DNA of 64,000 bases. Origin: Rozella allomycis CSF55. Taxonomy: Eukaryota. The notes under the pieces were generated by a model. It was not told the DNA's origin. It saw nothing but the letters and a program-made list of their open reading frames with translations, and ran no database searches. A program made the translations under genes and the position numbers. Location of the stretch: assembly GCA_000442015.1 (NCBI GenBank), contig KE561068.1, forward strand, positions 1 through 64,000, read 5' to 3'. Within the stretch, counting starts at the first letter, position 1. The number at the start of each line of letters is the position of its first letter. Of this stretch, positions 655 to 64,000 are shown in pieces.

Positions 655-1817
655 ATGACAATACGTACCTTATCATGCACAATATTTTAGTTCCCGTTAA
701 AGTAGTTATAACTGGTGCTGCAGGGCAAATAGCTTACTCTCTTTTATTCCATGTTTGTTCGGGCCAAATCTTTGGAAATGACCAAGTAAGGTTCATGCGT
801 TTCTGATACTTGAAAATCGATTTATATTTGCTAGAAATACCTTCCATGATCAGCCAGTTAGAAGGAGTTAGAATGGAACTAGAAGACTGTGCATTTCCTT
901 TACTTAACCGTATTGATAAATAATGACATTTTTTCAGAACTATCGATAACGGATAATCTTGAAGAAGCGTTTAAAGATGCAGATTATGCCTTTTTAATTG
1001 GAGCTCTACCGAGAAAGCAGTAACAATTAGCAGCGACCAAGATTTCTTAGAGGTATGGAGAGAAAAGACTTGCTAAAATCAAATGCTTCAATTTTCCGTA
1101 ATCAAGGTCTTGTCATAGATAATGTGGCCAAAAAATCTATTAAGGTATTAAAAAAACCCATGATTTGTAGATTTTGGTAGTAGGTAATCCCGCCAATACA
1201 AATGCGTATATTTTGAACAAGTCAACGCCTTCAATACCGTCTAAAAATATATCTGCCTTAACCCGCCTAGATCAGAATCGTGCCACGTTCCAAATAAGCA
1301 AGACTTTAGGTGTTCCGGTAAGTAAGATTCAGAATGTCGTGGTCTGGGGAAACCACTCTAATACCCAATTCCCGGATCCGAAACACGCCCTTTTTGATGA
1401 TGGCCGCCAAGTTTGGCCTATTTTAAAAGCAAAATTTGACGAGCCGAATTTTATTGAAACTGTACAGAACCGTGGAACGGATGTTATCAAAGCCAGAAAA
1501 TTGTCATCTGCCATGAGTGCCGCCAAAGCTTGCGCAGATCATATGAGGGACTGGTGCTTAGGAACAAAACAGGTACCAAAAGTAAAATCGTCTGTCCAAC
1601 TTAGGGTGAAATAGTATCAATGGCTGTAGTGTCCAATGGAAACATGTATGGTATACCTAAAGATATCGTATTTTCTGTTCCAGTAACTTGCAATAATGGA
1701 GAATGGAAACTTGTTGAAGGGATTGAACTAGATTTTAGTTCAAAAAAGTACTTTGAAAGTACTTTGAACGAGCTAAAACAGGAAGCGTTAGATGCAGAGT
1801 TTGTGTTTCAAGAATGA
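655..1817 (+). CDS. MDH1: cytosolic-type malate dehydrogenase, 6 micro-introns
   Basis: Spliced product contains [53 protein letters not shown] and [13 protein letters not shown]. Introns are 26-32 nt; intron 786-812 reads GT..TG. Confidence 0.95.
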
Positions 1818-1903
1818 TTGCTTAATTAAAGATTGGTTTTTATGCTTATTGATTTTTGTCCGTCTTTATCATTTTATCTTTNTTTCTAAAACGGGAATTT
1901 TCG

Positions 1904-3403
1904 ATGCGCGCAATCCTAAATGCCCGACAATTAAAAAATCAAAGTAAAAATTCATTTACAATATAATTAAAAGTATACTTACCTTCTCTAAACGAAGGGC
2001 CTTATTTGCAATTTGGTTTGGATAAGGTTCTCTTCACAAAGGGAGTCCATAAATTGAAAGAGAAGGGTGAATATAGGTTTCCACAATACCTAGAAAAACT
2101 ACCTCCAAGAGATAATATTAATATTGAAAACTTCAGCCATTTTGTTCACAGTTCGAATGATTCGGTATAAAGATTATTAAAGATACGATCTAGAAGTTGC
2201 ATGGAATTGCGAGAAAACTTGAGACCGAATATGTTACTTCAACATCTTCAATAACTTCAGCATTATCAATATTATATCTCGCCATTTCTATGCGAAGGAA
2301 GCCTGACATGTTGTACCTTTCCAAAGACTATACTTTTGAACCTAGACGATATACTAACAGAGTATTCTCACCAATAAGCATTATTGTAAATCCCTTACAA
2401 GGAGGTTTGACTAACATTCAATGTGAAAGGACATTTTCTAATAACATTTTGACCGATATGGGACACGTGTTTGAAAAACTAGTCGTTACAACCGAAGAAG
2501 AGTTTTCCAAAATATTGAATTTTAAAGAAGAACCGAAATCTAACCATAATTATGTTTATAATCAAGTAGGTCTTAGATTTATCAATTGTCAGGCGGGTTC
2601 GTTTCTGATACGGTCACAAATTGATTGTCAACACGAGAAATTGCAATATCACCGATTTGATATCAAATCAAGGGCCACATTTCCAATTAGATTTGACAAG
2701 GAAAACTATTCAGTACATTAAAGATTCCATAAATGATAGAAATATTTCGGTTATGAATTAAGGAAGGATAAGGGATTATATAATTCGTTTGAAAAAGAAT
2801 ATTACGACATGCATAGATCAGCTATGCTTAAATATTAGTAAGGATGTCTCACTATCCGTTATTAGTTTTCAGGTTAGATTGGGCCATATGGATGGAATAT
2901 TTGTTATCTATCACAGTGTTCGAAATATATTTGGATTCCAATATATATCTCGAAATGAAATGGAAAAAAGACTATTCGGATCGTCAAAAATTGCGCAAGC
3001 TTATTACTCTTTGACTATTCTGGCTCTGGAGAACATTTTCAACACGTTAAATTTAAACAGCGGTAAAAAGAGAAGAGTAATATTTGCTCTTGATGACTGT
3101 GTTTTGAAAATAATCGAAGAACAAGTCGATACTGAAACTAATCTTCCCATCGGTACTACAAACGTACATTCTGTTAACTTTACAACCTTCAATCAATTAA
3201 CGAAAATCGACGAAGCTTCAAGTATTATGAAAATTAGAAATGTTAATGACATTTCTATTGAATGTAATATTACAAAAAATGTGGAATCAAATACTTCCGT
3301 GAACTATGACGCAACAAGAAGACTTGCAGTTGACGGTAAACCTTCTTATATTAATGCTTCATTTTTAAACAAGTTGGAAAAATTATCAAGATTTTCACAA
3401 TAA
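1904..3403 (+). CDS. PET127: mitochondrial RNA-processing exonuclease Pet127-like, 5 introns
   Basis: GLDKVLF, STSSIT, FLIRSQIDC..FDIKSRA..IRFD, SFEKEYYDM.RSA.LKY, QVRLGHMDGIFV.YH...IFGFQYI match Pet127 motifs. Confidence 0.85.
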
Positions 3404-3456
3404 ACATACTTTCATATTACAATAAAAATATTTCATGTAAAAATATATCATAAAGT

Positions 3457-3530
3457 TGCTCCCAGCAGGGGTCGAACCTGCGGCCTTCGCGTTATTAGCA
3501 CGACGCTCTAACCAACTGAGCTATGGGAGC
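3457..3530 (-). tRNA. tRNA-Ile(AAU), copy 2
   Basis: Identical 74-nt sequence to 537-610. Confidence 0.97.
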
Positions 3531-10224: not shown

Positions 10225-11293
10225 TTAATCAAAGAGGCCAAATCCCATATCTTCATCACTCTCTTCCTTTTCTTCGACTTTTTCTTCAACCTTGGTTTCA
10301 GCGGCAGCAACTGGAGCAGCTGCAACAGCGAATTTAGATGGATCAGCTAAGTATTCTTTCATCTAAAGGTTAGAAACTGAATTCAAAACAATTGTTGAAT
10401 AAAAATGTGTTCAGTAAAAAATTAGAGTATTTGAGTTATCATGGACTCTCACTTTAATTTTTTCATCACAACAAATATATAGAAAAATAAAAAATGCCTA
10501 CCTTCTCAGCTAATGGGAATGAATAATCAGTGACAGCAGCGATGGCAAGAATGTTCTTGTATGCATTGATAATGTGGTGAGGAACGGAAGCAACACTTGG
10601 AACCTTCAATTGCATAGAAAGAGCAGCGATGTTTCTAATAGCAGATGTGAGATACTCCAACAAAGTTTCATCAGTAATATCAAGGATATCTGCTCCAAAG
10701 ACGGCACCATGGTCATAAACTTGAACAACTTCCAAACCATAAGTGAATGGAGACACATTCATCATGTTAAGAAGAGTTGCTTCGGAAGCTCCAACTTTAG
10801 TTCCGGCTTGAATCAAGTTGACTTCACTGATAATTTCAATAAGACCTTTGGTAATCTTGGTTGGAATTCCGAGTGCTTGAAAGAAAGAAGTCTTTCCAGG
10901 TTCCATTCCAGTGTTACCTGCAGGAATCTTGACATTGCAGGGAGCGACAGCTCCTGCCTTAGCCGGAGCTTTAATACGATAAGAAATAACTTTATCGCGA
11001 ACTTCCTTCAAATCCCCGTTGGTAAAAACAAAACCAACATTTCCCTTGATAAAAGGAAGGAGTTTTTCAAGTGCTGGGTTTTCAACCATCAAACCACGAA
11101 TAGCTTTGCGGACCATGGTATTTTTTCCCATAAGAACAATGGCTTCACCACGGACAGACTTTCTAATCAAGTGCATTTGGTTGGATCCAACATTATCAAC
11201 GCTGACAACAAGGACACGAGAATAATCTTGAAAAAGATTGTTCAACTTTAGAAAATATTCGGCTTTGCGTGAATGACTATCTCCCTTTGACAT
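10225..11293 (-). CDS. RPP0: 60S acidic ribosomal protein P0 (uL10), one 139-nt intron (10363-10501)
   Basis: [40 protein letters not shown]-terminal [12 protein letters not shown]. Confidence 0.97.
10406..10473 (-). ncRNA. candidate intronic box C/D snoRNA
   Basis: C box GTGATGA (10463-10469), D box CTGA (10411-10414) and short terminal stem TGTT/AACA. The guide before the D box is complementary to the conserved 18S segment AAAAAAUUAGAGUGUU. Confidence 0.8.
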
Positions 11294-11680: not shown

Positions 11681-12478
<798 letters not shown>

Positions 12479-12628: not shown

Positions 12629-13201
<573 letters not shown>

Positions 13202-25099: not shown

Positions 25100-26532
25100 A
25101 TGGCATCGACTTCAGCTACAAAGCCTATCTGGGAGGACACTCAAGCCCTCGAAGACTTGGGCCAAGAAATATTAAGAGCATCCACTGAGGACATTATGAA
25201 TCGCACTCGTTTGCTCGAAAATGAAATCAAGGTAAGGAGTTTCATAAGGATCAATAGATTATGAGAAGTGAATTAATGAGACTTCAACATGAACAAGCAA
25301 CTATGGAAGACAGCATAAAAAGCAACAAAGAAAAAATTAAGGTGAACAAGCAAATGCCATACATTGTGTCAAACGTTGTCGAAGTACGTGTCTTATTTGT
25401 TTATAAAAAGGTACTGGATGTCAATCCAGAAGATGAAGAAGAGGAAGAAGGTGCTAACGTGGACTTGCACTCCAAGATTAAGGGTAAATGTGCAGTAATC
25501 AAAACCTCCACTCGTCAAGTAAAACTAAAATTTCAAACTTTATTAGACTATTTTCTTACCAATGATCGGTTTAGTCGATCCTGACAATCTTAAGCCCGGT
25601 GATTTGATTGGTGTTAACAAAGACAGCTATTTGATTTTGGAGGCGTTACCAACCGAATTTGATTCGAGAGTTAAAGCTATGGAAGTTGATGAGAAACCCA
25701 CTGAGGATTACAATGATGTTGGTGGTTTAGATAAACAAATAGAAGAGTTGGTTGAAGCTGTTGTTTTACCGATGACACACAAGGAAAGGTTTCAAAAGCT
25801 TGGAATTAAACCTCCAAAAGGAGTTTTAATGTATGGTCCCCCAGGAACAGGTAAATAAATACAGTGGGAATTATTAGGAAAAACTTTGTTGGCAAGAGCT
25901 TGTGCTGCACAAACCAATGCCACTTTTTTGAAATTGGCAGGACCTCAACTTGTTCAAATGTTTATTGGTGATGGAGCCAAAATAGTTAGGGATGCGTTCC
26001 AATTGGCGAAAGAAAAGGCACCTGCAATTATTTTTATTGATGAATTGGATGCTATCGGAACGAAGAGATTCGATAGCGATAAAACTGGTGATCGTGAAGT
26101 TCAAAGGACAATGTTGGAATTATTAAACCAACTTGATGGTTTTAGCTCCGATGACCGTATAAAGGTGATTGCTGCAACCAACAGAATTGACACACTTGAC
26201 CCAGCTTTGTTACGTTCTGGTCGTTTGGATCGAAAAATTGAATTTCCCCATCCGAATGAAGAAGCTAGAGCAAGAATCATTCAAATCCATTCCCGTAAAA
26301 TGACATTGGAACCGGATGTCAACTTTGACGAGTTGTCCCGTTGTTGTGAAGACTTTAATGGAGCTCAATGTAAAGCTATTTGTGTGGAAGCCGGAATGAT
26401 TGCCTTGCGCAGAGGTGCGGTTAGTGTTTGCCATGAGGATTTTATGGAAGGTAAGTTTGTTTCTCATTCGTGACCAAAGGTATACAGGAAGTTCAAGCAA
26501 AGAAAAAGACTGCCTTGCAATACTATGCTTAA
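25100..26532 (+). CDS. RPT5: 26S proteasome AAA ATPase Rpt5, 5 introns
   Basis: [48 protein letters not shown], ends KKTALQYYA. Confidence 0.98.
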
Positions 26533-36100: not shown

Positions 36101-39100
36101 TAATGAAATCAAGGAAGAAACATTTTTAGAATTTATTAATAACATGTTAACATCAGGAGAAGTATCAAACTTGTTTCCAAAAGACGAAGTTATCATGATT
36201 TCATCCGACATGAGACCGATAATGAAGAAAGTCAGACCCCAAACAATTGATACAAATGAAAATTTATGGCAATTCTTTATTGACAGAGTCAAGAGCAATC
36301 TACACATAGTTTTATCATTCTCGCCTGTTGGAGACAAGTTTAGAAACAGAGCATTGAAGTTCCCTGGACTGATTAGTGGTTGTACAATGGACTGGTTTAC
36401 TAGATGGCCAAGTGAAGCGTTGAGAGCTGTTTCAGAGAAATTCTTGCAAGAATTTGACATTACATGTTCAGAGCAAGTCAAGATGGAAGTTGTTAACCAT
36501 ATGGCCTTTGTGCATGATTCTGTCACTGATATGTGTCAGCAATACTTTTTGCAGTTTAGAAGAAGCACCCATGTCACTCCAAAATCGTATCTAAGTTTTA
36601 TTAATTCTTACATGTCATTGTATAGCAAGAAGAGGAGAGAAGTTGGCGAGTTGAGTGACAGAATGAATATGGGGCTGTCTAAACTATTGGAAGCTACTAA
36701 ATCTGTTGCTGTGTTGAAAGAACAGTTGATTGTTAAAGAAAAGGATCTTGTTGTCGCCAGCAAGGAAGCCGATATTGTTCTAGTTGATGTGTCTGCTGCC
36801 ACTGCCGATGCTGAAAAGGTTAAAGAGGCAGTTTTAAAAGTCAAATTGAAGTCTGAGAGTATTGCGAATGCTATCAAAAAGGATAAAGAAGAAGCCGAAG
36901 GACAATTGGAAGCAGCCAGACCAGCGTTGGAGGAAGCAACAAAGGCATTGAATTCTATTCAGCCAGCGCATATTTCAACAATAAGAAAACTAGCTAAACC
37001 TCCACATCTGATTATGAGGATTATGGATGCTGTGCTGATTTTGCAAAAGAGGAGAATTGATGCTGTTATTCCTGATCCTGAGAGACCCTGTGTTAAACCT
37101 TGCTGGAGTGAATCTTTGAGATTAATGTCGCAGAGTGATTTCTTGTCTTCTTTAATCAACTTTCCATGTGATGAAATTAATGCAGAGACTGTGGAGCTGT
37201 TGGATCCTTACCTTGAAATGCCAGATTTTAATTTGGAAGGTGCAAAGAAGGTGTCGGCTGATGTTGCAGGTAACTTTTAATGTTGAAATTCACATTTAGG
37301 TTTAGCATCGTGGGTTAGAGCAATGTCATTCTATTACACTATCAATAAAAAGGTTATTCCGTTGAAAATGAATTTAGCAGTGCAAGAAAAGAAGTTGGAG
37401 ATTGCGATGGCTGATTTGAACAAGGCTCAAAAGACTTTGGATGAGAAGCAAGCTGAATTGGATGTGTTTAAACAGAAATACAATGCTGCTATAACAAATA
37501 AACAGGCGTTGCAAGATGATGCTGATTCTTGCAAGAGAAAGATGACTGCTGCAACTGCGTTGATTAATGGATTGAAGGGAGAGAAAGATAGATGGACATT
37601 GCAAAGCAAAGAGTTTGCAGAGCAGATTGGAAGACTTGTTGGTGATGTTATTCTGGCTACAGCATTCTTGTCGTATTCTGGGCCGTTTAATCAGACGTTT
37701 AGAACCCAGTTGCTGTCTATTTGGAAGGAAGATTTGAAAAAGAGAAAGATTCCGTTTTCTGCTGATGTTGATATTATCTCACTGCTTGTGGATGGCACTA
37801 CTATTGGAGAATGGAATATACAGGGACTGCCGACTGATGAGTTGTCTATACAGAATGGAATTATTGTTACGCAGGGAACGAGGTATCCACTGTTGATTGA
37901 TCCACAGGGACAGGCGAGATCATGGATCAGGAAGAGAGAAGAGAGCAGAGGGTTGATTGTTACGACATTGGGCAACAAGTATTTCAGACAGCATATTGAA
38001 GATTGTGTGTCGCAAGGGAAGCCATTGCTGATTGAAGATGTGGAAGAATCACTGGATCCAACATTGGACAATATTCTGGAAAAGAATTTGATAAAATCAG
38101 GGAAATCGTTTAAAGTTATTTTTGGAGAAAAGGAATTAGATTTTACTGAAGGATTTTGTTTATTCATTACAACAAAGTTGGCTAATCCGAGATATTCGCC
38201 TGAAATTTATGCAAAGACTTCTATTATTGATTTCACTGTGACGCAAAAGGGATTGGAAGATCAATTGTTGGGAAGAGTTATAATGAAGGAGAAGCAGGAA
38301 TTGGAAACGGAGAGATCCAAGTTGCTGGAAGAGGTTAATTCTAATAAGAAAAAGATGAAAGAATTGGAAGATAATTTACTGCAGAGATTAACTTCAACGC
38401 AAGGGTCGCTAGTAGATGATGAAAGTTTGATTGAAGTGTTAGCCGTTACTAAAACAACTGCAGAGGAAGTGTCTGAAAAGTTGGTGATTGCAGCAAGCTG
38501 AAACGCAAAAGAAAATAACGATTGCGAGAGAAGAATACAGACCAGTGGCTACTAGAGGATCTGTTTTGTATTTTCTTATTGCTGAAATGTCAATGATTAA
38601 TATAATGTACCAAACTTCATTGAGACAGTTTTTGAAGCTGTTTGATGAATCAATGTCGAAATCTAATCCGTCGCCTATTCCTTCAAAGAGAATTCAGAAT
38701 ATTATAGAGTATTGCACGTTGAGAACGTTCAAGTATATGGCTAGATCATTGTATGAAGAACACAAGCTGTTGTTTACATTGTTGTTGGCTTTAAAGATTG
38801 ATATGTTGGCTGGAAAGATTCCGTTTGATGATTTTAGATGTTTTATTAAAGGAGGAGCAGCGTTAGATATTAATGCAGTGATGAAGAAGCCATTTAATTG
38901 GATCTCTGATATGACTTGGCTGAATCTAGTTGCTTTGAGTAAAATTAATTCGTTCCAGGATATTCTCAATCAAGTTGGAAAGAATGAAAAAGCTTGGAAG
39001 AGTTGGTATGAAAAAGATTCGCCTGAAAATGAGCCGTTGCCTGGTGGATATTCAAACACTCTGGATTCATTTAGAAAATTAATGTTGATTCGTTCTTGGT

Positions 39101-41028
39101 GTTTAGACAGAACTATTGTATCTTCTAAACAGTATATTGCTGATTCTCTGGGACAAGTTTATGCTGAATCTCAGGTGCTTGATTTGGATGCAATGTTGGA
39201 AGAGAGTGACAATAGAACTCCTTTGATTTGTTTATTGTCAACTGGTGCTGATCCAACGGCTGATATTGAAAGTTTATCCAAACGACATAAAATTGATATG
39301 AAAGCAATCTCGATGGGTCAAGGACAAGAAGTTCATGCTAGAAAGTTAATGACGAATTACATGACGAATGGTGGTTGGGCTCTACTACAAAATTGTCATT
39401 TGGGTATTCCTTTTCTTGAAGAATTATTGGTAATGATTCTGGAAACTGAACAAATTCACGAGAAATTTAGATGTTGGATTACTACTGATGTGAATGAAAA
39501 ATTTCCTATAAATTTATTGCAAGTTTCTATCAAATTTACGAATGAACCACCTAGAGGTATTAGAGCTGGATTAAAGAGAACTTATGGTTGGTTAACTCAA
39601 GATATGTTGGGTAAAATATATTCCTTCAAGTTTATTCTTAGATATTTCTGCTAGACCTCAGTACAAACCATTGATTTATGCTATTGGATTCTTACATACT
39701 ACTGTTCAAGAAAGAAGAAAGTTTGGTCCTTTAGGTATCCATTATTATCAATTTCAATTCTAGGTTGGAATATTCCATATGAATTCAATCAATCTGATTT
39801 AGCTGCCTCAATCCAATTCTCTCAAAACCATCTTGATGAATTACAACCAAAGGCTCCTATTTCCTGGACTACCGTTAGATACATGTTCTGTGAAGTTCAC
39901 TACGGAGGACGTGTTACAGATGACTATGACAGAAGACTACTAGTCACTTACGGAAAGACTTGGTTTGGTGATCACATGTTTGCTGACAACTTTCAATTCT
40001 ACAAAAATTACACAATCCCTCATCTCAAATCAATCGACGAGTACAGAAAAGTTATTGAAGAAGTTCCCCTGGTTGATTCTCCCGAAGTTTTCGGTCTCCA
40101 TCCTAATGCTGATATCTCCTGTCAAACTAAAGAGTCTAATTTGATGCTGGATAATATTCTGTCGATTCAACCAAAAGATTCGGGATCTGGGACTGGTGAA
40201 ACTAGAGAAGATGTTGTAAAGAGAATCGCTAATGATCTTTTAAGCAAACTACCTGAAGATTTTAACAAGCATAAAGTTAAACAAGCTATCGTCAAGCTTG
40301 GTGGTCCAAAACCTTTGAACATCTTTCTTGGTCAAGAAGTTGATAGAATGCAGACAGTCATTATTAAAACAAGATCGATTCTACAAGATTTGAAACTAGC
40401 TATTGACGGTACAATTATCATGAGTCCCCAGTTACAACAATCTCTCGATGCTCTCTATGATGCACGTGTTCCTCTTGCATGGGAAAAAGTTTCTTGGAAA
40501 TCATCAACTCTTGGCTTATGGTTCGCTGAACTCGTCCAAAGAACGCTGCAATTCCAATCATGGCTCTTTGAAGGCAAACCAAACGTATTCTGGCTGTCCG
40601 GCTTCTTCAATCCCCAAGGGTTCCTCACCGCCATGCGCCAGGAAATCACAAGAGCGCATCAAGGATGGGCATTGGATAACGTCAAACTACACACAGAAGT
40701 TTTGCGCCAGATGAAAGAAGATATCACTCAGCCGCCAGCCGAAGGCGTGTACATCCACGGTCTGTTTATTGAAGGTGCTGGCTGGGACAGGAAGAATACA
40801 CGGCTGGTTGATTCGCAGCCCAAAGTCATTTACATGCAGATGCCCATTGTTCATGTGTCCGCTATCAACTCGACGGAAGACCGCGATCCCAGGTTCTATC
40901 AATGTCCGGTTTACAGGAGACCTAATAGGACAGATCTCAATTATGTGTTTGATGTGGAATTGAAGACTCAGCAGAATCCTGATTATTGGATTTTGAGAGG
41001 AGTTGCGATGCTGTGTTCTACAACTTAA
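27145..41028 (+). CDS. DNAH5: axonemal outer-arm dynein heavy chain (DNAH5/8, gamma-type), 13 introns and one apparent frameshift near 38495
   Basis: P-loops [26 protein letters not shown] and [24 protein letters not shown]; ends [11 protein letters not shown]. Confidence 0.95.
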
Positions 41029-41326: not shown

Positions 41327-42501
41327 ATGCCACGCAAACAAACGGACTATTATGATATTGCAGAGATATCATCAGATACTTTGTTAAGAGAATTTGAAAA
41401 GAAGTATCAGGAGTGCAACGAAAATGCTGAACCAACTGAACACGAAAAGGTGTAAACTATTTTGCTCTCACAAAAAATAGTGTCAAAAAGTGGGAACAAT
41501 GGTGTGAAGAGCATGAACATGATCCAAAAGAAATTTCAACAGAAACAGTTTTGCAAATCAAAGATTTTTTACATCATGAATGTGGCAAAGTGGTAGTGTG
41601 GAATTCGGTAATTTCACAAATCTAAAGTTGAAAAGTTCAATAAAGCAAAGAAGATAAAGTCTGACATAGGAAAATATTTGAAATATGAGAATCCCGAAAT
41701 GATTATTAAGGGACCTTGGAATACAGATACGAACACAGGAAATCCGGCGTTGTCAAAAATGTTGACTGTGGAACTTCAAAAAATTAAACGTCTGGTTCAA
41801 AATCGAAAAAGCGTTGTAAGCACTAAACGTGCAATTGATGAATTGGAAATGAAAGCATTGTTTTCGCATTTGACAAAACTGGAAGATACAAAACCAAACA
41901 CCGCATGCATGTTCAAATGCATGTACATCTTAATGTTTATGTGTATGTTGGATTTCGATGATGTAACCCGTATTATGATAGAATGGTTCAAAATACCTGG
42001 AGATGATAAAAATAGTTTGATTATGGAATTTCCTTTAAGGCAACATGTCCAAAATAGTGATGGTAATGACATAAGTTGATGCAAATAGTATTACATGGTT
42101 TTTCCTTATACAGGGCAGACAAAAAGAATATCCATCTTTGTCCAATTACTTGGGTTAACATTTGGTTAGCAACAATTAGAAAGCTTAAAGGTCCTTTGTT
42201 TGTGAATATATCTGAGAATGATGAAGTTATACGAGAATCTCCAATAACCAGAGATTTCTTTGTGACGCAGTTTAATCATCATTTGCAAGCAATAGGCCTA
42301 GATGCCGTTTGGTTTGACACAAAATCCTTTAGCAAGGGTAGCGTTCAATTTTTTTATAGAAAGGGTTTTGAAATCGTTGAAATACTGCATTGGTCGGGGC
42401 AATCAAAATCATTTAATGAAAATGTTATTGCGGAATATATTAGAGGCCAGAAACGAATTAGTGGCGAAGCCTTAATGAGACAATTGGGCCTTGGCCCGTA
42501 A
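41327..42501 (+). CDS. Crypton-like tyrosine-recombinase-fold protein with degenerate catalytic residues, 3 introns
   Basis: KKWEQWC, GNPALS, LDFDDV (cf. LRFDE), LCPITW, GPLFV, TKSFSKGSVQ (cf. THSFRRGG.Q), HWSGQS (cf. WGGWS), IAEYI. Confidence 0.7.
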
Positions 42502-49049: not shown

Positions 49050-50340
49050 TTAGTTGTTTATTCTTAAATTAGCTTTTCTTTTGGCCATGAAGTTGTCTAG
49101 AGTTTCCCAAAATTTGAAGACCAAAGTCGCATCAAGATGACGTTTGTTTTCACTTAGAGCCAAAACTGAAACATCCCACTTCAAAATATTCGGGTCTGGT
49201 CGCACATGATCAAAACATAAATGAAATCCTTTAAGATGAGTAAATATTTCAACAGGATTCTCCCATTTCCAACCCTTAAATTGCCAACCTGCTCCAGTTA
49301 CAAAAGCGGCTACAACTCTATCCCTTTAACTCATTTACATTCTTTAAATTTACCAATCTGAAGGTTTGAAGCGATTTACAGAATCTGTAATTTCATATTT
49401 CAATATTTTTCCATTAACATTCCTTTCGATAATTAACTTTGAGTGTTTCCTATTTTCGGTGGATTTTTTCTGTACGTAGCTAATTAAGTCATATTGTTTT
49501 CATTACCTTTCATGTTGTAAAAATTCCTTTGCATTGTGAAGATTGATGAGGGATGTCACAGCACTGGGAACTAAAATAATTGGTAAAACAGAGCCTTTTA
49601 ATGAATTATTAAGTTCCTACTTGCAGGTAACTTCGATGCGGTTGCATCGTCGATTTTCATTTGGGTTTCTTTCCTCTCAGGTCTTGATGCTTGTTTCACA
49701 ATACTCAAAACCGGAGTGAAGTCCTGTCAGAATAAAAATAAATAATTACAGTTTTTGAAAGTAAAAGGGATTCTCTAGTAAAAACAGGCTTTTCGTATTG
49801 CAAAATATCGTGGACTTTCAACCTGAAAGTTATTTCATTATCGGTGGTTTCAAAATTACTATCTGCATCCATAGCGTTTCCATCTGTCCTGTTTTCATTC
49901 AGCTTGATCTTTTTCGAACTTGGTTCATTAATGTTTTCCAAAGAGACCCATTGAAAATGAGGAACCTCTTCAAATTTTATATGTGGTACTTTTTTCATAT
50001 CTATATTTGATTCCGTTAAATATTCAAGCAATGGCTACTCTAAAAATTATAATGTCATTACTTTTCTATCTGGCAGGGAAACATTTGGGACTCCGATACG
50101 TTTGCACTCTTGCAAGTAGGCCCCATATTGACTGATTTCTCGATGTAAATATGCGAAATAGACAGCATCTATTGGGTACGCTGTTCCTTTTCCTCTTTGC
50201 CGAAAAAATGCTGTTAGAGTATCTCTATGAACCAGGTCGTTTCCAAATTGAATATGAGTAAAGTTTTCTTTGTTTGGATACAAGGAAATGGTTTGTTTCG
50301 AAATTAAATACTCTTTTAAAGTTGTTAAAGGATCATTCAT
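49050..50340 (-). CDS. CDC73: Paf1 complex subunit Cdc73, 5 introns
   Basis: [46 protein letters not shown]. Confidence 0.92.
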
Positions 50341-51650: not shown

Positions 51651-54049
51651 ATGAATCAAAGTTCAAAATCCGATAAAAGGAAAGAAAAGGAACCAGCTTA
51701 TGAATCTTATGATCAGTATTTCCAGGAAAAGAAGCGCAAGTTGGAACAACAAAACTCGTGTACTCTAAAAAGCAATATTTTCTATGGTTTAGTGTTCCAT
51801 GTCAATGGATACACTAATCCTCCACTAACTACAATTAGAGATCTAGTTTGTGAGCATGGAGGTCGGTATGCACAGTATCTATCAAGGGAAGTTACTCACA
51901 TCGTGTGTACAAATCTGCCCATGGCAAAGCTGAAATTGCTAAAGCAAAGTGATGTTATAATAAAACCTGAATGGATTCTGGATTGCATTAAAAAGGGTGG
52001 ACTTGTTGATGAGAAGCCTTACCGAGTCTATGAACATAATAGCCTGAACAATCAAAAGACACTAGTATTACCTACGGCCAGCCGCACTCCGGTGGCACAT
52101 GCTGAAAGAGAATCGCGGATTGATGCGTCTGATCCTAATTTTGTAGCCCAGTTCTATCAAAACTCAAGGCTGCATTTTCTTTCCTTGTGGAAAAACGAAT
52201 TGAAAGAATTTACAGCTGAATTTTTAAAGAACAAAAAGGATAACATTCACGGCGCCTATAAAGTAATATTGCATGTAGATATGGACTCATTTTTTGTTTC
52301 AGTGGCATTAAAGGATCGCCAGAATCTGATTGATAAACCTGTCGCTGTTGGGCATTCGACTCGAGATGGGAAAGAATCTAATAAATTAGATTCTTCTAGC
52401 GATTTAGCGTCTTGTAATTACGTGGCTAGACAGTTTGGAGTTAGGAATGGAATGATGTAAGAATTTTGGTTGATCGTTTTAGGCTGCAGAAAGCGCTAAA
52501 GCTTTGCCCAGGTCTTATCGTTCTTCCTTATGAGTTTGAAAAGTATCGCGAGATTTCTAGAAAGTTTTACACTGTTTTATTCAAATATGCAGATAACATC
52601 CAAGCTGTTAGTTGTGATGAGGCATTTCTTGAAATAAATTCCAAATTAAATGATGATAGCAAAGAAACAGTCTATGATATTTGTGAAAATATAAGAAAAG
52701 ATATTAGAGATATTTGTGAAGTAAATGCTTCTATTGGAGCGGGCCCCAATATGTTAATTGCAAGATTGGCTACTAAAAAGGCCAAACCAAATGGCCAACA
52801 TTATGTTACAAAGGAAGAAATAAAAGACTTTATCAAAGACATTAATGTTAAAGATTTGCCATCCGTGGGATACGCCCACGGATCACAATTTGAAACTATG
52901 GGTATTGAAACATGCTCACAACTTGAACAATTAACCATCAGCGAATTACAAAAAATATTTGGAATCAAACAAGGGGAATTGTTTTATAATTATTGTAGAG
53001 GAATTGATTCAAGAGAATTGATTAATACGCATGAAAGAAAATCTATTGGAGCTGAAATAAACTGGGGGATTAGATTAAATGAAAAATCTAAAGTTGAATC
53101 ATTTTTTCGTAATTTGTCTAAAGAAGTCTCTGAAAGATTAATTTCGTCTTCACTTTCTGGCAAATTATTGACTTTAAAGGTTAAATGTAGAAAAAGGGAT
53201 GCTGAACAGCCAAGGAAGCATATGGGTCACGGCTGGTGTGATGATATTTCAAAATCCCATGAATTTTCTAGGCCTGTTTTTGAAGAGAATGTTATTTTCA
53301 CTCAGGTGATTAAGATGTATAATGGATTGCATTTGGCGCCTGAAGATTTAAGAGGTGCTGGAATTCATTTTCAAAAACTAGTCGATATAAAGAATGCAAA
53401 AGGTAAGAATCACATGCGGTTTTGTTTAGATCAAAAAAAGTTGGACTTTTCAAATATGAAAAAGAGAGAAATCAATAACATCAAGAAGAATAATAAAAAT
53501 GAAGTGGAAATTATTTCCTCATCTGATATACCTAAGCATTCTCCTGAAAAGAATCCATCAAAGCAAAAAGCATTTCAAAAATTGAGTCCTAAAGGGAAAC
53601 CTCCATTTAAACCTTTAATTACTCTCACACAAAAATTTAAACCCAGAAAGTTATTTTCTGACGTAATTGAACTTTCAGATAGCGATGATACAATTAATCT
53701 GAATATTGATATTTTGTCTTCCCAATCTCACACGCAAACTCAAAATTATTTAATTTATCCAGACTTGGATGGTTTCGTTGACGAGAGCGAAATAAAGAGT
53801 AGATTGAAACAATGGGTGGATTATTTCAAAGATGAAGGACCCTTGGACATTGATAAGCGGACAATCTTTACATATTTTAGTGAATTATTTGATTCCAAAA
53901 ATCTGGATCTTGTAAGAAAGTATTTCTGTTATTTGAAACGTTTGATAAATGAAATTGAAAGTGAAAAATGGCCTTCATTTTTGACTGAGTTAGAGAATCA
54001 ATTGCAATTGATGTCAATCAACAATTATGGATCTAAATTATTACTGTAA
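51651..54049 (+). CDS. REV1: translesion polymerase Rev1, 2 introns
   Basis: BRCT (VNGYT.P), [42 protein letters not shown]. Confidence 0.95.
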
Positions 54050-55204: not shown

Positions 55205-56429
55205 TTATTGTGATTTTCCAATCTCAGCCTTGGCGGCCAAGTTTCTCTCTGCGCTGTATAAGACTCGGTCTAAAAATCCAGCTGCGGCGAAAATGCCTCC
55301 GACAATTGCACAGACTCTTGTTAAAAATGACGAAAAAGATCTAGACTGTTCTACATATATGATATTCATTGGCGATATATCAAAATTGAAAAATATGCCT
55401 ATTAAAGTTACATCTTAAGCTTACCGACTTTTTCCGATGGTCTTTTTGCGGTTGTTACAGCGAATTGATTCGTATGTACCTTTTTGCCGTTTGCGTATTC
55501 GATGTTTGTTGAAACCACGTTAATAAAGTACTGAAACATGTATTCTGTACTAGCGGCCTTTTCAGAATGATTATCAAGAGGATTTAGAACGAATGTTCCT
55601 TCAGGTTTACCAAAAGACAGCGAATTAATAGTATGGCTCAAATCATACGTCACATCACTAAATGGATTTAGGTCATGAATATGCATATCTTGATAATGGA
55701 AACTTAGACCGGGTGCGATGTGAAATTCAGCAGCAACCTTTTTAACCTCAAAGTAGCCTTCAATACGACAACCCTCACCTCTTTCGTTTTTTATGCGATC
55801 AGCATAGCCTTCTTCAACACACTATCTATTCGATATATAAATATTACTTGTGCGAATTTGGAAACATCCTTGGCGGACCAACCTCTGTTCTCGTATGCTC
55901 TGATTACCTCGTTACAGGTATTGCAACATTGATTGGGTTCAATTTCTGCATTGTAACATGAACCGCATTTTGCCTTTCCATCTTTTGTCTTAATGCTAGT
56001 TCCGTTGATGTTTATACCTATGTTTCAATTTACAATCTCTTACGAAAAGCCTCGGTAGATACAAGTTCACCATTTTTGGTAAGTCTATGTTTCTCAAGAG
56101 TATGTTTTATGTCATCTTTAAACTCCCCTGATGCATCCATAATATCAACCGAAAGCACTAACTAATAAGAATTTGTTTTTCACATTACAGAAACATGGCG
56201 CTTTTGGGAGTGTTATATTTAGATAAACCGGCATCAAATCTCTCCTCGATGTGTCAACATTTAATTGAGTATCGAAAGAAGTAGAAAAATATGACACACA
56301 CTCTGCAATGAACAGATAAATGATCAACACATAGCTGAAAACGGTTATTACACCACCTGTGCTTGTCTTGGTTTTAAAATCGTCTAGAGTTTTAGCATAT
56401 GCATCAAATTTTTGCAAGTTGGATAGCAT
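55205..56429 (-). CDS. ERV46: ER-Golgi vesicle protein Erv46/ERGIC3, 4 introns
   Basis: FDAYAKTLDDF, CGSCY, CCNTC, SHTINSLSFG, FQYFINVV, CAIVGG, ends EIGKSQ. Confidence 0.93.
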
Positions 56430-56483
56430 ATAAACAAACAAATAAAATTCAGAAAAATACTAAAACTGACTAACAATTTGAAT

Positions 56484-58806: not shown

Positions 58807-58866
58807 TACGGGACGATAAATAGGGAAACCAGGGTTACACAATCTAGCAACCACCTTGTCCATCGA

Positions 58867-59907: not shown

Positions 59908-60018
59908 TTTGAAGTTGACCTTTAAATAAAAACTTGATACATTCATTGATTTTTTGATTTGATTCCAGATATTGCTATCCCTTTGAATTGATCTATTAAG
60001 AATTTCCGAAATTTCGTA

Positions 60019-60607
60019 ATGCCGTATAGTCGCCACATTCCCTCGACCCGTGAATACTCGAACAATTACATAAATGACGAGCATAGTGACAACAGCAATG
60101 AAAATTACTGTGAAAGCGAGGATGAGCTGTTTTCTAGAGATACATGGAGGTCGATTATTAATTTTTTCCCCAACGTCGACGAAGAGGAGGAAGGCAGCGA
60201 CGAGGAAGCTTCCAGTTCCGATGAGAGTGAAAGCCCGTTGCAAGACATTGCGCATTTATTAAGAGTGAACGATCGCCGCGACTATGGGATGCTCATGCAC
60301 AAGTTCCAGGTAACCAAAGCAATTAGGCTCTATAAAACAGGAGCTTCGACAAAGCCAAGATTCGCAATGGTTTGCAGATTTGATATCAACGTTAGAAGAT
60401 GCTATGGATTCCATTGAGAGAACCGAGGAGCGGCTTGACAAGAAGGTCGAGGAGATTATTAGAAAGAAGAGGGAATTGAAGGAACAGAAAGAGATTGTAG
60501 ACGGTTTGAGTAGAGAAATTAGGGATACTGGATATCCGTTATTTTCGGCTAGACCAAGGAAGAAAATTAAGAGGGAGCATTTAGATACGAAACTATTGAA
60601 TAGATAA
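60019..60607 (+). CDS. hypothetical acidic/coiled-coil protein, one 31-nt intron
   Basis: A GT-AG intron joins the ORF starting at 60019 to the coiled-coil ORF ending at 60607; GAAATTTC lies just before the ATG. Confidence 0.65.
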
Positions 60608-60849
60608 ATCAAAGTTTCTTTCCTTTATTAATAAATTAGTTGCCTAGTTTATTTTTCACCACTGTCACCAACTAGTTCATTGTTTACTGGTAATCCATTG
60701 GCTAGTTTGAATTCAATGCTACAACATATAATACATTTATGTAAAAATGGATGTAACTTTTCGATGGTATCAAAACCATCTTTTACAGTACTGTCGTTGT
60801 ATTCAAATATTACATCAAGAAAAATTTATTTAATTATTATAATCTGAAA

Positions 60850-63800
60850 TCACCAAAACGGACACCAACCAATATAGCACTGACACAAATTCTCCACCGC
60901 CGTCGCCTGCTGAATGAGCTTATCAACCTGCGCGTGTATATCCAGCGTAACACTAGTCTTAAAATCGCGACCTACATAACCACTACAACATCACCCAACC
61001 TGTAAGTTTATTCGACACTCTGGTAATAACAGCAACGGCTTTAGAATTCAAGACTTCGCCAAACGAGTCTTCATTCTGCAAATCACTTGATTTCTTGACC
61101 AGATCTTTTTTTGGCTCGTTATTTGATAGGATGCGCCAGTTGATTAGTGGATCGTAGACGAATGCTTCGAGGACGGCCATGAGACTGTCCTTGTTGGAGC
61201 GCAGGACTCGCATGACGTTTTCGCAGGTGATGCGGAAACTGCCTTCGATGCCACTGACCTAGCATGCATAAGATTAAAAGGGGTTACTTCCATTGCGTTT
61301 GAAAGCATGCGTGTTAATCTGAATGGAATCTTTTCAGGAAATTTGTCTCTGTGCATTGCAACTTCAAAGCAGTCGCCAAAGTCAATGTGGATTATTTTTC
61401 CAGAGATTCTGTCGAGCATTAAATTTGAAGGGTGTCGGTCGCCAAGCCCTGTTGAAATTACATGTAAATGGGATACCTAGAATGTAGCCGACCATTGACA
61501 TGACAGCCAGCGATCGCGTGTAATTTGTTCTTCTTTCAAGCCAAGCCTTGAAAATTATTACTGAATTAATTTACTTCAGAGTTTTTAGATTTGAGCCATA
61601 AAACGTTATACAAATCTTGACCATTAGTGTTATTCAAAGCGGTTTGGAACACTTCAATCTTTTGCAGCAATGTCAAATTATCATAATCGGGTGCCATCTA
61701 TTAATCAATGATCACTCTTATTACTTGGAGCATCATTCGGTGTTCAACATTCAACAACACTTTTCTTCCTTCTCTGTATTCCCTAATAAGTGCATGCAGC
61801 GTATCGCAATGAGGAACCCATCCTATTAAGAACAAACATCAATTAATACCTAGCAGCCCAGAGTTTTGAGAAAGAGGAATAGCAGGATACCTCTGAATGG
61901 ACAAATGCCGTTTAAACGTTTCAGGATCAGACGCCAAAATATTATTAACGAGCCCAAACAACTGCATAACTCGCTCATCCTGTCTCAAATCTTCGTGTCC
62001 TTTTAACAAGTATTGATATATTTTCCCATCAGTCCCTTTAATTGAACATTTACGCGGTCTCTGCTTTGAAGTAATAACAGTCAACGTTGGATGGAACATT
62101 TGGATTCTGATTATCTGTGAATTGGATTTATAAGTGCCTGGAACAGCCAATTCCAAATCTTTCGCGTTTAATAGTTTAGGTGAAATGTATTGTAGATCTA
62201 AACTAGTCATTTGAGATAGTTGCTTGGTGATTCTCTTAAACACGTGGTAATACAGATCCCATGCCATATTCAAATCATTAACGTTGTTTGATTTCTTGTA
62301 TTTTTTACACCAATCATTCGCTTCTTGTAAATCTCTTCCATACGCTTGCGTAAATGAAATCTCTCTCAACGTCTCTGCACCCCTTTCCATCATCAAATGC
62401 AGCGGTTCCAAAACACCAAGCATCCCTCATCTCCTATAAACTAAATGTTTACCTTCAATATTATGATCACTAAAGTACAATCTTGACGCTTCTTCCAACC
62501 CCTCATGCCAAACTTCCTGCCACAAAATAGCGACTCTAATCAGCTCTTGACTTACAAGCAAAACCTAAAACAAATCAACTAAAATCATACCTGCTCAACT
62601 AGATGTAACGAATGCGACTTCATCTTTTCAATAATAGCCAACGCCGACGTCTTTCTAGAATACGACGTAGATTTCGAAGCAACAGTCAGAGAATACACAA
62701 GCGCCTGCGGATGCTCCTTCCCAACATCATTCAACACACAATGAATCAATCTCCTAACCTGCGGCGTCGGCGCATGAATCCTCGCAATCAACTGCGGAAT
62801 AACTTGCAGCCAAGTGTCAATCCTCACCGAATTGAATCCCTAGCTGATCGCCATATTGACTTCAGGATGGTATCCGTATTTAAACATCAGCGTCAATAAC
62901 CTCAACGTATCTTGCAGCGAATTTTCAAATGACAGTGAAATCGATTTAAAGAATCCTTGCACAGCCGGCACTACAAATGAAACGATCGTTTGCTTGTTGC
63001 CCTGCCCACTCTTTTCCATATCAGACACAACCTATAATAACATTGTCAATTCATTACCTGGAAATTAGCCAACGCCCATGAATGCCACGCCTTGTACCAT
63101 TCAGGATTAAATCTAGTCGCCTCCAAAAACGCATGAATTATACTAGAATGCGAATCATCAGACAACAACGACTATTCACCCATACAACATTTAATTACTT
63201 TTTGGTATTGACCCAATTTATGGTAACATTTAGCCAACAATTTTGAATGCTCATTGATTGAAAATGTTTCTGAATTTGATTCTGAATTTTTCCTAATTTC
63301 CAAATCACCCGCCAAATTCAAAGTAAAATCGTACAAACTCTTCAATGTCTCCACCTTGTCTCTAGTCTCCCACGAATATTTCAAAAACGAATAAATTATC
63401 AGTGGCGGCGACTGGTCAAAAGAAATCAAATTCAATGGAATAGAATTCAGCAGCCCAGAGCCCAGTGATTTACTTGCTTTCAACGAAGAACCCTTCAACG
63501 AAGATTCTTTCAACGCCAACACTTTATCCACCTCGGCGTTTTTAAACACAAAATTGTTTTTAAACAAATCCAGAAATATTTTATTACAAATGCTAAACCT
63601 CCCAGCTTTCCTGCACAGATTAGCAAACTTTATCCACATTTCAATATTCTCTTCAGGCTCCATTACAAGCGATCGTATTTTTAAAATTCTCTGCCAAACT
63701 TCCACATTCCTTTGACAGCCACTCAATCTTTTCATCCAGCATTCTTTGATAATTGGCTGCTTTTCAGGATACTTTTTAAATGAAATAATCTCTTCCAACT

Positions 63801-64000
63801 CTACAATCATCTGAATTCTAACAAGAACACTTTAAATGAAACTTTATAATTAACTTTACTTGTAGGCTCTGTTGTAGCTTTCACCAATCAATGCAGTCAA
63901 TTCAGTATCCAGTAAATCCCTCGTCTTTTCAATCAAACCCTGCGCCAAACTAAAATCATTTTTATTCAACGCCGAAATAGCTCTAAAGAAAGATCCATCA
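60850..64000 (-). CDS. TOR: TOR kinase, 3' part (FAT-FRB-kinase-FATC), in-frame TAG at 62840-62842
   Basis: [56 protein letters not shown], ends YIGWCPFW. Confidence 0.97.

Follow-up and report, generated by a model that had tools for sequence, protein, structure and literature searches.

The window, that is, the whole 64-kb stretch of DNA analysed here (positions 655..64000 shown, both strands covered), is a gene-dense part of a Rozella-like fungal genome and holds genes for malate dehydrogenase, Pet127, ribosomal protein P0, Rab5, calmodulin, Rpt5, dynein, a recombinase, CDC73, Rev1, CAF1, an ERGIC3-like protein and TOR, all of them with predicted introns, nearly all very small. The curated set for the whole window, in which Pet127 and a few N-termini are left without a model, contains 101 introns, or ~1.6 per kb of genome (101 introns/64 kb). 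Of these, 99 measure 26-32 nt, following a curation that favoured the pattern, since it swapped one 17-nt call for an alternative of 26 nt and left out one unresolved call of 40 nt; the two long introns measure 71 and 139 nt. A sequence-only reading of the same DNA had counted about 110-120 introns, nearly all of 26-32 nt, and while its size range holds, the number recovered is somewhat lower. The tiny introns are distributed as 22 of 26 nt, 26 of 27 nt, 19 of 28 nt, 18 of 29 nt, 7 of 30 nt, 6 of 31 nt and 1 of 32 nt, with none of 24 or 25 nt in the curated set, so that one narrow length window holds 99/101 introns, with the mode below ~30 nt by which a tiny-intron genome is recognised. We see the same peak among ORF-bridging GTA..AG candidates, which number 65 at 26-32 nt vs 9 at 19-25 nt and 21 at 33-39 nt, and no length peak arises when control dinucleotide pairs are put through the same ORF-bridging count. 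When a gene finder was run with equal prior weight on all lengths from 15 to 80 nt, 79 of its 96 introns were 26-31 nt long. Individual introns are listed here with the evidence for each; positions within an intron are counted from the donor, and A23 is an adenine at position 23.

1573..1604, + strand: malate dehydrogenase intron of 32 nt without A23, GTACCA..TTAG, substituted for the gene finder's 23-nt call; against cytoplasmic MDH chains, residue 134 of the upstream exon falls on chain residue 263 and residue 1 of the downstream exon on 264
10363..10501, - strand: long intron of ribosomal protein P0, 139 nt, CTAAC 8 nt before AG, C/D-box-like insert; putative junction, read against the P0 sequence
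12632..12702, + strand: calmodulin intron, 71 nt, right after ATG, CTGAT 6 nt before AG; sole frame-compatible solution
27660..27685, + strand: dynein intron, 26 nt, AG at 22 skipped; gap-free junction
28511..28536, + strand: dynein intron, 26 nt, AG at 21 skipped; homology
28780..28809, + strand: dynein intron, 30 nt; homology
32840..32867, + strand: dynein intron, 28 nt; homology
33248..33276, + strand: dynein intron, 29 nt; homology
34253..34280, + strand: dynein intron, 28 nt, AG at 20 skipped; homology
34453..34481, + strand: dynein intron, 29 nt; homology
37270..37299, + strand: dynein intron, 30 nt; homology
39611..39641, + strand: dynein intron, 31 nt, with A24 in place of A23; homology
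39735..39763, + strand: dynein intron, 29 nt; homology
41608..41635, + strand: recombinase-gene intron, 28 nt, AAG at 20 skipped; frame only
50035..50061, - strand: CDC73 intron 1, 27 nt, AGs at 22 and 24 skipped; public model P0241, homologue P0245
54951..54979, - strand: CAF1 intron, 29 nt; 1-nt deletion at 54971 in a second haplotype
56158..56188, - strand: ERGIC3-like gene intron, 31 nt, AG at 27 skipped; P0247 is identical to the model built here, and P0248 is gap-free at PCFLLSIDVMD
61698..61724, - strand: TOR intron, 27 nt; homology
61823..61849, - strand: TOR intron, 27 nt; homology
62426..62452, - strand: TOR intron, 27 nt, GAG acceptor, AGs at 12, 19 and 22 skipped; gap-free against the 9 homologues listed
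62565..62590, - strand: TOR intron, 26 nt, no A23; homology
63032..63057, - strand: TOR intron, 26 nt; homology
63172..63198, - strand: TOR intron, 27 nt; homology
63830..63859, - strand: TOR intron, 30 nt; homology

GT opens all 99 tiny introns (GTAA in 75, GTAT in 15, another form in 9) and AG closes 98 of them, with TG in one; the acceptor trinucleotides are TAG (61), AAG (24), CAG (12), GAG (1) and TTG (1). The interiors are 77% A+T (T 42%, A ~34-35%, C 10%), and introns of this size leave no space for a pyrimidine tract, in keeping with an earlier description of weak tracts and frequent AAG acceptors. The host is a cryptomycete fungus, closest among named relatives to Rozella allomycis CSF55, and its tiny introns are probably U2-type (GT-AG) spliceosomal introns of the ordinary kind, reduced to a minimal architecture. 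In all, 28 junctions could be fixed precisely via homology to other species, and from these gap-free junctions we infer that the introns are removed from mature mRNA; in the one RNA run checked for the locus, only spurious 35-53 nt pieces matched. Both 1-nt indels between haplotypes that fall within gene models sit in predicted introns, and exonic haplotype indels are multiples of 3, among 12 of 19 indels listed. Lengths divisible by three are not depleted (33/99), and stop-free sequences make up 3 of 33 introns of such length vs 24 of 65 of other lengths, a comparison in which detection is biased against the former. Paramecium-type translational control (NMD) of intron retention would be expected to deplete such stop-free introns.

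Counting from the donor, 79/99 tiny introns have A at position 23 irrespective of their length (binomial p ~1e-20 vs the 34% A of the interior), compared with 107/340 decoy GTA..first-AG sites. By length class, A23 occurs in 19/22 introns of 26 nt, 23/26 of 27 nt, 12/19 of 28 nt, 14/18 of 29 nt, 7/7 of 30 nt and 4/6 of 31 nt. Counted from the 3' end, the conserved A runs along a diagonal from -4 to -9 as length goes from 26 to 31, meaning that it is 5'-anchored; counted from the 3' end, even the most favourable position, -4, has A in 57% of all introns (33% to 86% depending on length), so there is no fixed 3' distance. The tail from A to AG varies over 3-8 nt while the donor-to-A distance is nearly invariant, and in 18 introns A23 lies 3 nt from the 3' junction. 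Around it, T is found at 21 in 62/99 introns and a pyrimidine at 24 in 65/99, and the resulting T-N-A-T context, in which position 23 carries ~0.7 bit and its neighbours no more than 0.1 bit, resembles a branch site. A23 is absent from 20/99 introns, 9 of which have A24 and several of which carry just a T-run ahead of AG. In the homology-verified subset (n=28, lengths 26-32) A23 is present in 23/28. We take A23 to be a putative branch point, and the fixed distance seems to be that from donor to putative branch point, not from donor to acceptor. The +23 A, the main signal in these introns, had been overlooked in the sequence-only reading.

The A23 could be some other signal, because a 3-nt tail is shorter than both the 5 nt proposed for Stentor and the minimal branch-to-junction distances known from yeast and human; set against spliceosome structures, such a tail seems sterically extreme. 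On this account A23 would be a real positional signal contacted by an early-complex or second-step factor, with the branch point at ~+15 to +20, where some introns without A23 have A's, at 18-20, ahead of a T-run. We find this improbable: each of positions 8-22 is A in 23-44% of introns, with no second conserved A seen among them, and the T-N-A-T context matches the yUnAy branch consensus. The Stentor tail, as proposed in the accessible part of PMC9505925, is itself only 5 nt.

Internal AGs are common, with 94 in total spread over 57/99 tiny introns. In a 78-intron set, 43 of them would give a length of at least 12 nt, and 40 of these cause a frameshift or in-frame stop while 3 leave the frame open, which bears out the earlier view that frame conservation forces the skipping of nearer AGs. 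The cases cited for that view hold as well: CDC73 intron 1 bypasses both its nearer AGs for 27, on which P0241 and P0245 agree; the TOR intron at 62426-62452 reaches past three AGs to a GAG at 27; and the recombinase intron uses 28, on the basis of frame only. The rule 'first AG at least 25 nt from the donor' picks the assigned acceptor in 97/99 tiny introns and in 26/28 of the homology-verified subset. AGs occupy 1/180 positions between 25 and the used acceptor vs 34/768 in the zone 17-24 (Fisher p 0.008); four introns have an unused AG at positions 23-24, and none of the tiny introns has one at 24-25.

These figures can be read, as they were in the sequence-only reading, as a direct donor-to-acceptor ruler that cuts at the first usable dinucleotide at least 26 nt from the donor, with no reference to a branch site. 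The 97/99 acceptors are compatible with a 25-26 nt threshold, and the GT-TG intron described below is cut at 27 nt although AG is absent. However, such a ruler leaves the A at position 23 in 80% of introns unexplained, cannot accommodate the introns of 71 and 139 nt, and fails on the homology-verified intron at 56158-56188, which has A23 yet passes over an AG at 27 and uses 31. A waiting-time rule alone would also predict a long tail of lengths because AG makes up ~4% of positions, yet the lengths end at 32. We therefore judge a direct ruler very improbable: distance describes the choice of acceptor, but a pure donor-to-acceptor measure does not account for it. When scanning is set against fixed distance, the distance rule fits, but the acceptor is the first AG past A23. 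Acceptor choice appears to follow the classical first-AG-after-branch-point rule, with the putative branch point itself tied to the donor. It is this outcome that the earlier reading had named as refuting its ruler.

We consider a three-part minimal architecture the probable explanation of these data. A GTAA-type donor would be its first part, the branch point would be an adenine that sits, within a weak T-N-A-T context, exactly 23 nt from the donor, and the acceptor would be the first AG that begins at least 2 nt past A23, leaving a 3-8 nt tail, so that intron length would equal 23 plus a short tail. Nearer AGs would be skipped because those upstream of that point are invisible to the second step, even an AG whose A is A23. 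What places A23 may be a limit on its distance from the 5' splice site, either steric or imposed by an early complex. Against this account, which draws on 64 kb of sequence, the homology-verified intron at 56158-56188 breaks the first-AG rule although it has A23, and the 71-nt and 139-nt introns have a branch-like motif 6-8 nt before AG, which shows that the machinery is not confined to one distance.

Those two long introns, with CTGAT or CTAAC before AG and +23 unused, also favour evolutionary minimisation without a measuring device, whereby the branch site is read by sequence, introns have been deleted down to a steric minimum (A at 23 nt), and plain first-AG scanning follows. Compact genomes generally show narrow length peaks near a minimum, and Paramecium bursaria splices 23-26 nt introns best, according to the accessible part of PMC12862383. 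We nevertheless think minimisation rather unlikely to be the full account. T-N-A-T is too weak to single out one A in an intron of 77% A+T, and a nearly invariant donor-to-A distance with a variable tail is the opposite of what would be expected had introns shrunk evenly. Decoys matching the intron pattern are common (108 non-intron matches vs 75 introns), and therefore position must add information.

The proposed donor-A23-acceptor architecture also bears on the Rab5 gene and on two cases of twin introns, in which one intron follows directly on another without an intervening exon.

11930..11956, + strand: Rab5 GT-TG intron, 27 nt, in-frame TGA, A at 24; exact 9-residue gap vs Rab5C/Rab5A PDB chains
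12056..12083, + strand: Rab5 intron, 28 nt, AG at 23 skipped; chain numbering contiguous from 90/91 to 92 in Rab5A
12171..12197, + strand: Rab5 twin, first half, 27 nt, GTGAAA donor, A23; 56 nt removed in total, chain residues 120 to 121 contiguous
12198..12226, + strand: Rab5 twin, second half, 29 nt, A23, zero-length exon before; same 56-nt removal
35776..35805, + strand: dynein twin, first half, 30 nt, A23; exactly 59 nt removed
35806..35834, + strand: dynein twin, second half, 29 nt, A23, zero-length exon before; same 59-nt removal

The GT-TG intron and both twins are confirmed as real at the level of DNA and homology, and they fit the ruler that had been invoked to explain them, a ruler that is itself partly supported. 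TG is rarely used instead of AG as a 3' splice site in human, and the region of the Rab5 GT-TG intron has no AG from position 8 to ~49; TG may be able to act as acceptor if the window lacks AG. In the haplotype with the GT-TG site, TOR is interrupted by an in-frame TAG and dynein by a frameshift, and the GT-TG site could therefore be a damaged allele, not a working splice site. All four twin halves are 27-30 nt with A23, and in each twin the halves meet at an AG|GT junction flanked by a full set of signals on either side, as expected of recursive splicing. Recursive splicing at zero-length exons, in Drosophila and vertebrates, uses an AG|GT junction inside the intervening sequence, and the known sites subdivide very long introns. 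Unlike these, two complete ~28-nt introns adjoin here, with stepwise removal putative; the 56-59 nt intervening sequence may be taken out as two tandem tiny introns.

Stop-free introns of 27 nt had also been described as hidden inside called ORFs. Homology supports those in Rpt5 and dynein and a haplotype deletion supports that in Rev1, where PDB homology was uninformative at the site; that in Pet127 is a candidate.

2566..2592, + strand: Pet127 candidate hidden stop-free intron, 27 nt, no A23
25384..25410, + strand: Rpt5 hidden stop-free intron, 27 nt, A23; exact 9-residue gap vs human Rpt5
27900..27926, + strand: dynein hidden stop-free intron, 27 nt, in-frame AG at 18 skipped; gap-free vs homologues
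53403..53429, + strand: Rev1 hidden stop-free intron, 27 nt, no A23; the X5 haplotype lacks 1 nt at 53425

The succession of a +23 A and the next AG suggests how minimal introns are recognised. A bolder reading, which we hold as a tentative possibility, is that the branch A is chosen not by sequence but by where it lies, 23 nt from the 5' splice site, that the second step occurs at the first G-ending dinucleotide 3-8 nt on (TG if there is no AG), and that intervening sequences longer than ~32 nt without a strong distal CTAAC-type branch site are built from abutting tiny introns removed successively across zero-length exons. If true, no shorter spacing between branch and acceptor would be known, and 3' splice-site choice would be largely AG-independent and ruler-based.

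Set beside the accessible parts of earlier studies, the intron architecture here looks like a variant within known tiny-intron systems, and the ruler idea is partly supported. The introns of myxozoans and Dicyema (~20-27 nt) likewise lack a pyrimidine tract, have otherwise conventional U2-type signals and share a 5'-anchored putative branch site (PMC13644364), in the sense of the -4 to -9 diagonal found here. Those hosts are animals, whereas ours is a fungus; they show a stretch of 2-3 weakly conserved A's, which lie farther from AG as introns lengthen (PMC13644364, 2026), in place of one sharp position (+23, 80%), and the accessible text makes no mention of twin or GT-TG introns. With the 15-16 nt introns of Stentor coeruleus our set shares GT-AG ends, AT-richness, a single putative branch A (near-invariant in Stentor) and a very short 3' tail; the Stentor A is at position 10 (15 nt) or 11 (16 nt) with a fixed 5-nt tail and so is 3'-anchored, unlike the A here, which keeps a fixed donor distance and has a tail of 3-8 nt (PMC9505925). 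Paramecium and Nyctotherus, ciliates unrelated to fungi, have in common with our set the 20-33 nt range and GTA..TAG ends, and may share the scarcity of stop-free multiple-of-three introns, for which the count here is biased; their tiny introns have an optimum length window for splicing (PMC2633312, PMC12862383); for Nyctotherus, the accessible part of PMC2633312 reports that no branch motif was found. Within R. allomycis, the S23 gene has two introns of ~30 nt without the microsporidian 5' splice-site and branch-point motifs, and the accessible part of that study gives no analysis of their lengths or positions (PMC6349667). Microsporidia, a sister lineage, also have short introns (PMC6349667), but very few of them, against the density of ~1.6 per kb in the window.

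This window is nuclear DNA of 36% G+C that uses the standard code and carries four tRNA genes, with a gene content of about 32 genes in 64 kb. Among these are genes for malate dehydrogenase, eIF3b, thioredoxin, ribosomal protein P0, Rab5, calmodulin, HSP60, an ABCG transporter, Rpt5, an outer-arm axonemal dynein heavy chain of 4,485 residues (its best homologues are in chytrid fungi, at 60-67% identity), arginyl-tRNA synthetase, CDC73, Rpn11, Rev1, CAF1, an ADP/ATP carrier and TOR. Near-identity to CDC73 protein P0241 and agreement with ERGIC3-like protein P0247 point to Rozella allomycis, or a very close relative, as the organism. The narrow peak of tiny introns at 26-32 nt, as described in the sequence-only reading, was borne out by three tests that assume no intron length. 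In the first, GTA..AG pairs were counted where they bridge two open frames of at least 40 codons, neither frame continuing. Lengths of 26 to 32 nt gave 15, 12, 13, 12, 5, 5 and 3 such pairs, with 0-5 at adjacent lengths, and the peak was absent for six control dinucleotide pairs in the same count. Run with a flat prior of 15-150 nt but no splice-site model, a gene finder based on dynamic programming called 76 introns, 41 of them at 25-31 nt; once a weak splice-site matrix was added and the flat prior set to 15-80 nt, it called 96, of which 79 lie at 26-31 nt. For most of the longer calls a frame-compatible alternative of 25-32 nt exists.

The curated set comprises 101 introns in 64 kb, of which 99 are tiny, the other two being single introns of 71 nt and 139 nt. 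Two tiny introns, 5422-5449 and 25519-25546, were placed tentatively by comparison with the human eIF3b and Rpt5 sequences.

Curated tiny introns by length, with the number that have A at position 23 from the donor (A23) and the distance of that position from the 3' end
26 nt: 22 introns; A23 in 19; distance -4
27 nt: 26 introns; A23 in 23; distance -5
28 nt: 19 introns; A23 in 12; distance -6
29 nt: 18 introns; A23 in 14; distance -7
30 nt: 7 introns; A23 in 7; distance -8
31 nt: 6 introns; A23 in 4; distance -9
32 nt: 1 intron

During curation six introns were added and ten gene-finder calls removed: six refuted by homology, two gene fusions, one 17-nt call that gave way to a 26-nt alternative compatible with the frame, and a 40-nt call that was dropped. 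The swap and the 40-nt removal both lean toward the pattern.

Gene-finder calls rejected or dropped, with coordinates
1582-1604: 23 nt, contradicted by malate dehydrogenase homology
6305-6417: joins neighbouring genes
11780-11812, 11918-11937 and 12032-12078: Rab5, contradicted by homology
22482-22521: the 40-nt call
38469-38493: 25 nt, dynein, contradicted by homology
near 56460-56495: 36 nt, joins neighbouring genes
62840-62860: 21 nt, TOR, contradicted by homology

Proteins of other species place 28 junctions exactly, and all of these introns are 26-32 nt. Thirteen clean junctions come from dynein (MAFFT alignment with 20 of the 120 listed homologues, 8 shown), seven from TOR (16 of 120 homologues, 9 shown), four from Rab5, one each from Rpt5 and malate dehydrogenase, one from an ERGIC3-like gene (10 of 150 homologues) and one from CDC73, its intron 1 (3 of 6 homologues). 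None of the 15 introns of the window's dynein is found in a related outer-arm dynein heavy chain on a metagenome contig of 32% G+C (L001:369-9932), where 3,189 aligned residues are read in a single unbroken frame. When the RNA run X11 was compared at 85% likeness, the 13 pieces recovered showed no joints at introns; the 8 listed of these 13 are 35-53 nt long, and every one runs on into unlike sequence.

When the tiny introns are aligned at their 5' ends, we see a feature that the sequence-only reading did not notice: 79 of 99 introns (78 of 95 in an earlier set) have A at position 23, against an interior A content of 34% (binomial p ~1e-20) and 23-44% A at each of the other positions from 8 to 25. 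In the homology-verified subset the proportion is 23/28, and at 340 decoy sites, which are non-intron sites in the window where GTA is followed by its first AG at 26-31 nt, it is 107 (31%). Position 21 is T in 62/99 and position 24 a pyrimidine in 65/99, a T-N-A-T context that resembles yUnAy, the branch consensus, and would suit a putative branch point. Nine of the 20 introns that lack A23 have A at position 24, and several have only a T-run preceding the AG.

Acceptor choice was then considered in relation to this adenine. Internal AGs number 94, spread over 57 of the 99 tiny introns, and their use would give lengths of at most 24 nt, except for one at 27. In the first set of 78 introns, 43 internal AGs lie at least 12 nt from the donor; use of 40 of these would shift the frame or introduce an in-frame stop. 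Three stay open, and one of the three (dynein 27900-27926) is settled in favour of the distal AG by homology. Three introns, in CDC73, TOR and a recombinase gene, had been named as passing over a nearer AG, and all three proved to be as described, two with homology backing. In 10 cases the skipped AG is only 3-6 nt upstream of the used acceptor, so there is no AG-free zone counted from the 3' end. The rule of taking the first AG whose G is at least 25 nt from the donor is correct for 97/99 introns; in the earlier set, a threshold of 24 was correct for 91/96 and one of 27 for 74/96. AG occurs at 1/180 positions between 25 and the used acceptor, versus 34/768 in positions 17-24 (Fisher p 0.008). 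Four introns have an unused AG at 23-24, none has AG at 24-25, and the set holds no 24-nt or 25-nt introns, indicating a minimal layout of A23, one spacer base and AG. The tail behind the A is 3-8 nt long. Since AG makes up about 4% of positions, a pure waiting-time rule would give much longer tails, and selection must therefore keep an AG near the A.

The intron at 56158-56188 has A23, passes over an AG at 26-27 and uses the one at 30-31. Its junction, PCF|LLS, is the same in P0247, an ERGIC3-like homologue of 371 residues that has 100% identity to the query exon and matches our model along the whole alignment, and is gap-free against a second homologue (P0248) and others. A ruler from donor to acceptor does not explain this intron; a branch at A26 would. 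The proposal that the acceptor is chosen by its fixed distance from the donor holds in part: the fixed distance seems to run from the donor to the putative branch A, and the acceptor itself would need no ruler, with 56158-56188 contradicting one that runs from donor to acceptor.

There are further exceptions. The Rab5 intron at 11930-11956 starts with GTAAGT, includes an in-frame TGA and is free of AG from position 8 to about 49, so it must close with TG at 27 nt, yielding '[12 protein letters not shown]'; at this place the alignment with Rab5C and Rab5A chains has a gap of exactly 9 residues. Its A is at position 24, and the tail is again 3 nt. Both of the intervening sequences of 56-59 nt take the form of twin introns, two abutting tiny introns with a zero-length exon between them. 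In dynein, the 59 nt to be removed between GGKM and DLVLFEDAM divide into units of 30 and 29 nt (joint ..TATAG|GTAAAT..), and in Rab5 the 56 nt between chain residues 120 and 121 divide into units of 27 and 29 nt (joint ..TTAG|GTATAA..), with A23 in all four units. The twin form is not seen in the two long introns. The 71-nt calmodulin intron has CTGAT 6 nt before its AG, and the 139-nt P0 intron (10363-10501, - strand), the junction of which is a tentative reading against the P0 sequence, has CTAAC 8 nt before its AG. The latter also has C-/D-box-like motifs (TGATGA and CTGA) and a full-length SNORD36-like match at 10406-10474, which is sub-threshold (20.7 bits, E 0.36; gathering score 30). 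It probably hosts a C/D snoRNA, which would account for its unusual length.

The most economical reading would be conventional U2-type splicing, in which the branch A is kept 23 nt from the donor and the second step falls at the first AG; as the measured distance would run from donor to branch, acceptor choice would require no ruler of its own. The near-invariant first segment, set against a variable tail and a weak motif, favours a positional component, while the long introns favour recognition by sequence. The +23 position may be a measuring constraint that acts on both sides, or else just the steric minimum to which deletion has led. The earlier interpretation is partly supported, and the architecture, judged from 64 kb of DNA plus homology, is a variant of known tiny-intron systems. 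The pattern of myxozoans and Dicyema is likewise 5'-anchored (reported in 2026, PMC13644364), that of Stentor is 3'-anchored, unlike the A seen here (PMC9505925), and Nyctotherus shows no branch motif (PMC2633312). Two further sources give a splicing optimum of 23-26 nt in Paramecium bursaria (PMC12862383) and remark on two introns of about 30 nt in the S23 gene of Rozella (PMC6349667). Rozella intron density is put at 2.5 per kb (PMC8476143), and PMC11649378 does not mention Rozella. Our literature search, with supplements and the James et al. 2013 genome paper outside its scope, found no analysis of intron length or branch position in Rozella. The question addressed is how a spliceosome locates both ends of a near-signal-free 26-nt intron, in the sister lineage of the microsporidia, a group that is in the course of losing splicing. 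The donor-anchored A, the 3-8 nt tail, the distance-matched TG acceptor and the abutting twins all give concrete, testable predictions.

For annotation, the stop-free 27-nt introns matter in that they escape notice inside long open reading frames. Such hidden introns had been proposed, and are upheld for three genes.

25384-25410: Rpt5, by homology
27900-27926: dynein, by homology
53403-53429: Rev1, by a 1-nt haplotype deletion; PDB homology stops just upstream

The corrected dynein model shows no more insertions of at least 6 residues against its homologues. Introns are stop-free in 3/33 cases at multiple-of-three lengths versus 24/65 at other lengths, with detection biased against the former. 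The opposite error appears in the public CDC73 model P0241 (labelled Rozella allomycis CSF55), which is otherwise about identical to ours. It excises 49275-49301 (- strand), which has a high splice-site score yet is conserved coding sequence: it codes for VTGAGWQFK, which is kept in two homologues (P0243 and P0245). By this comparison the stretch is a predicted 27-nt stop-free intron too many. It has T at position 23, so that in the few examples seen the +23 A tells hidden introns from a falsely excised coding stretch. P0241 also excises a 45-nt stop-free stretch within a non-conserved linker, which could be either intronic or coding.

Comparison of DNA contigs revealed a second haplotype on 44001-64000, about 2% apart from the first; it is the minor form in run X1, at about one third of depth, and the sole form in run X5. 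Over 47605-57547 the haplotypes differ by 193 letters and 43 gap letters. The comparison covers the 12 of 19 indels and 40 of 248 substitutions listed. A 1-nt deletion at 53425 shortens the stop-free Rev1 intron from 27 to 26 nt, and another at 54971 shortens a CAF1 intron from 29 to 28 nt; exonic indels among the 12 add up to 9 nt and 6 nt, and the remainder are found between genes or at the end of one. These indels lend independent support to the predicted introns.

Two long genes have an interrupted reading frame. TOR has an in-frame TAG at 62840-62842 (- strand), where 9/9 homologues shown have, gap-free, an acidic residue (8 Glu, 1 Asp). Since contig 25 of run X6 matches the window letter for letter over 58519-64000, this TAG belongs to the DNA itself; a null allele of one haplotype is one possible explanation, read-through another. 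In dynein (~38488-38501, + strand) the conserved stretch 'EEVNEKLVVAAETQKK' is broken in its middle by a +1 frame shift at ..GCA AGC TGA AAC... The shift amounts to one or four extra bases and has no intron solution. Possible causes are a mistake in the assembly, damage confined to one allele, or +1 frameshifting at a stop. TOR also has a specific serine/leucine-rich insertion of 36 residues, '[36 protein letters not shown]' (63400-63510, - strand), which we take as coding and not intronic.

A Blastocystis-type polyadenylation motif, TGTTTGTT, gave 9 matches versus 6.9 expected, and the idea was abandoned. Some minor observations concern the remaining DNA.

537-610 and 3457-3530, - strand: two tRNA-Ile(AAT) genes of equal score, on either side of the malate dehydrogenase-Pet127 pair
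1882: one N in the assembly, directly 5' of the Pet127 gene
23640-24680, + strand: an open reading frame without introns that matches Pfam Uma2 (putative restriction endonuclease, PF05685; E 1.5e-8), a family typical of bacteria; horizontal transfer is possible
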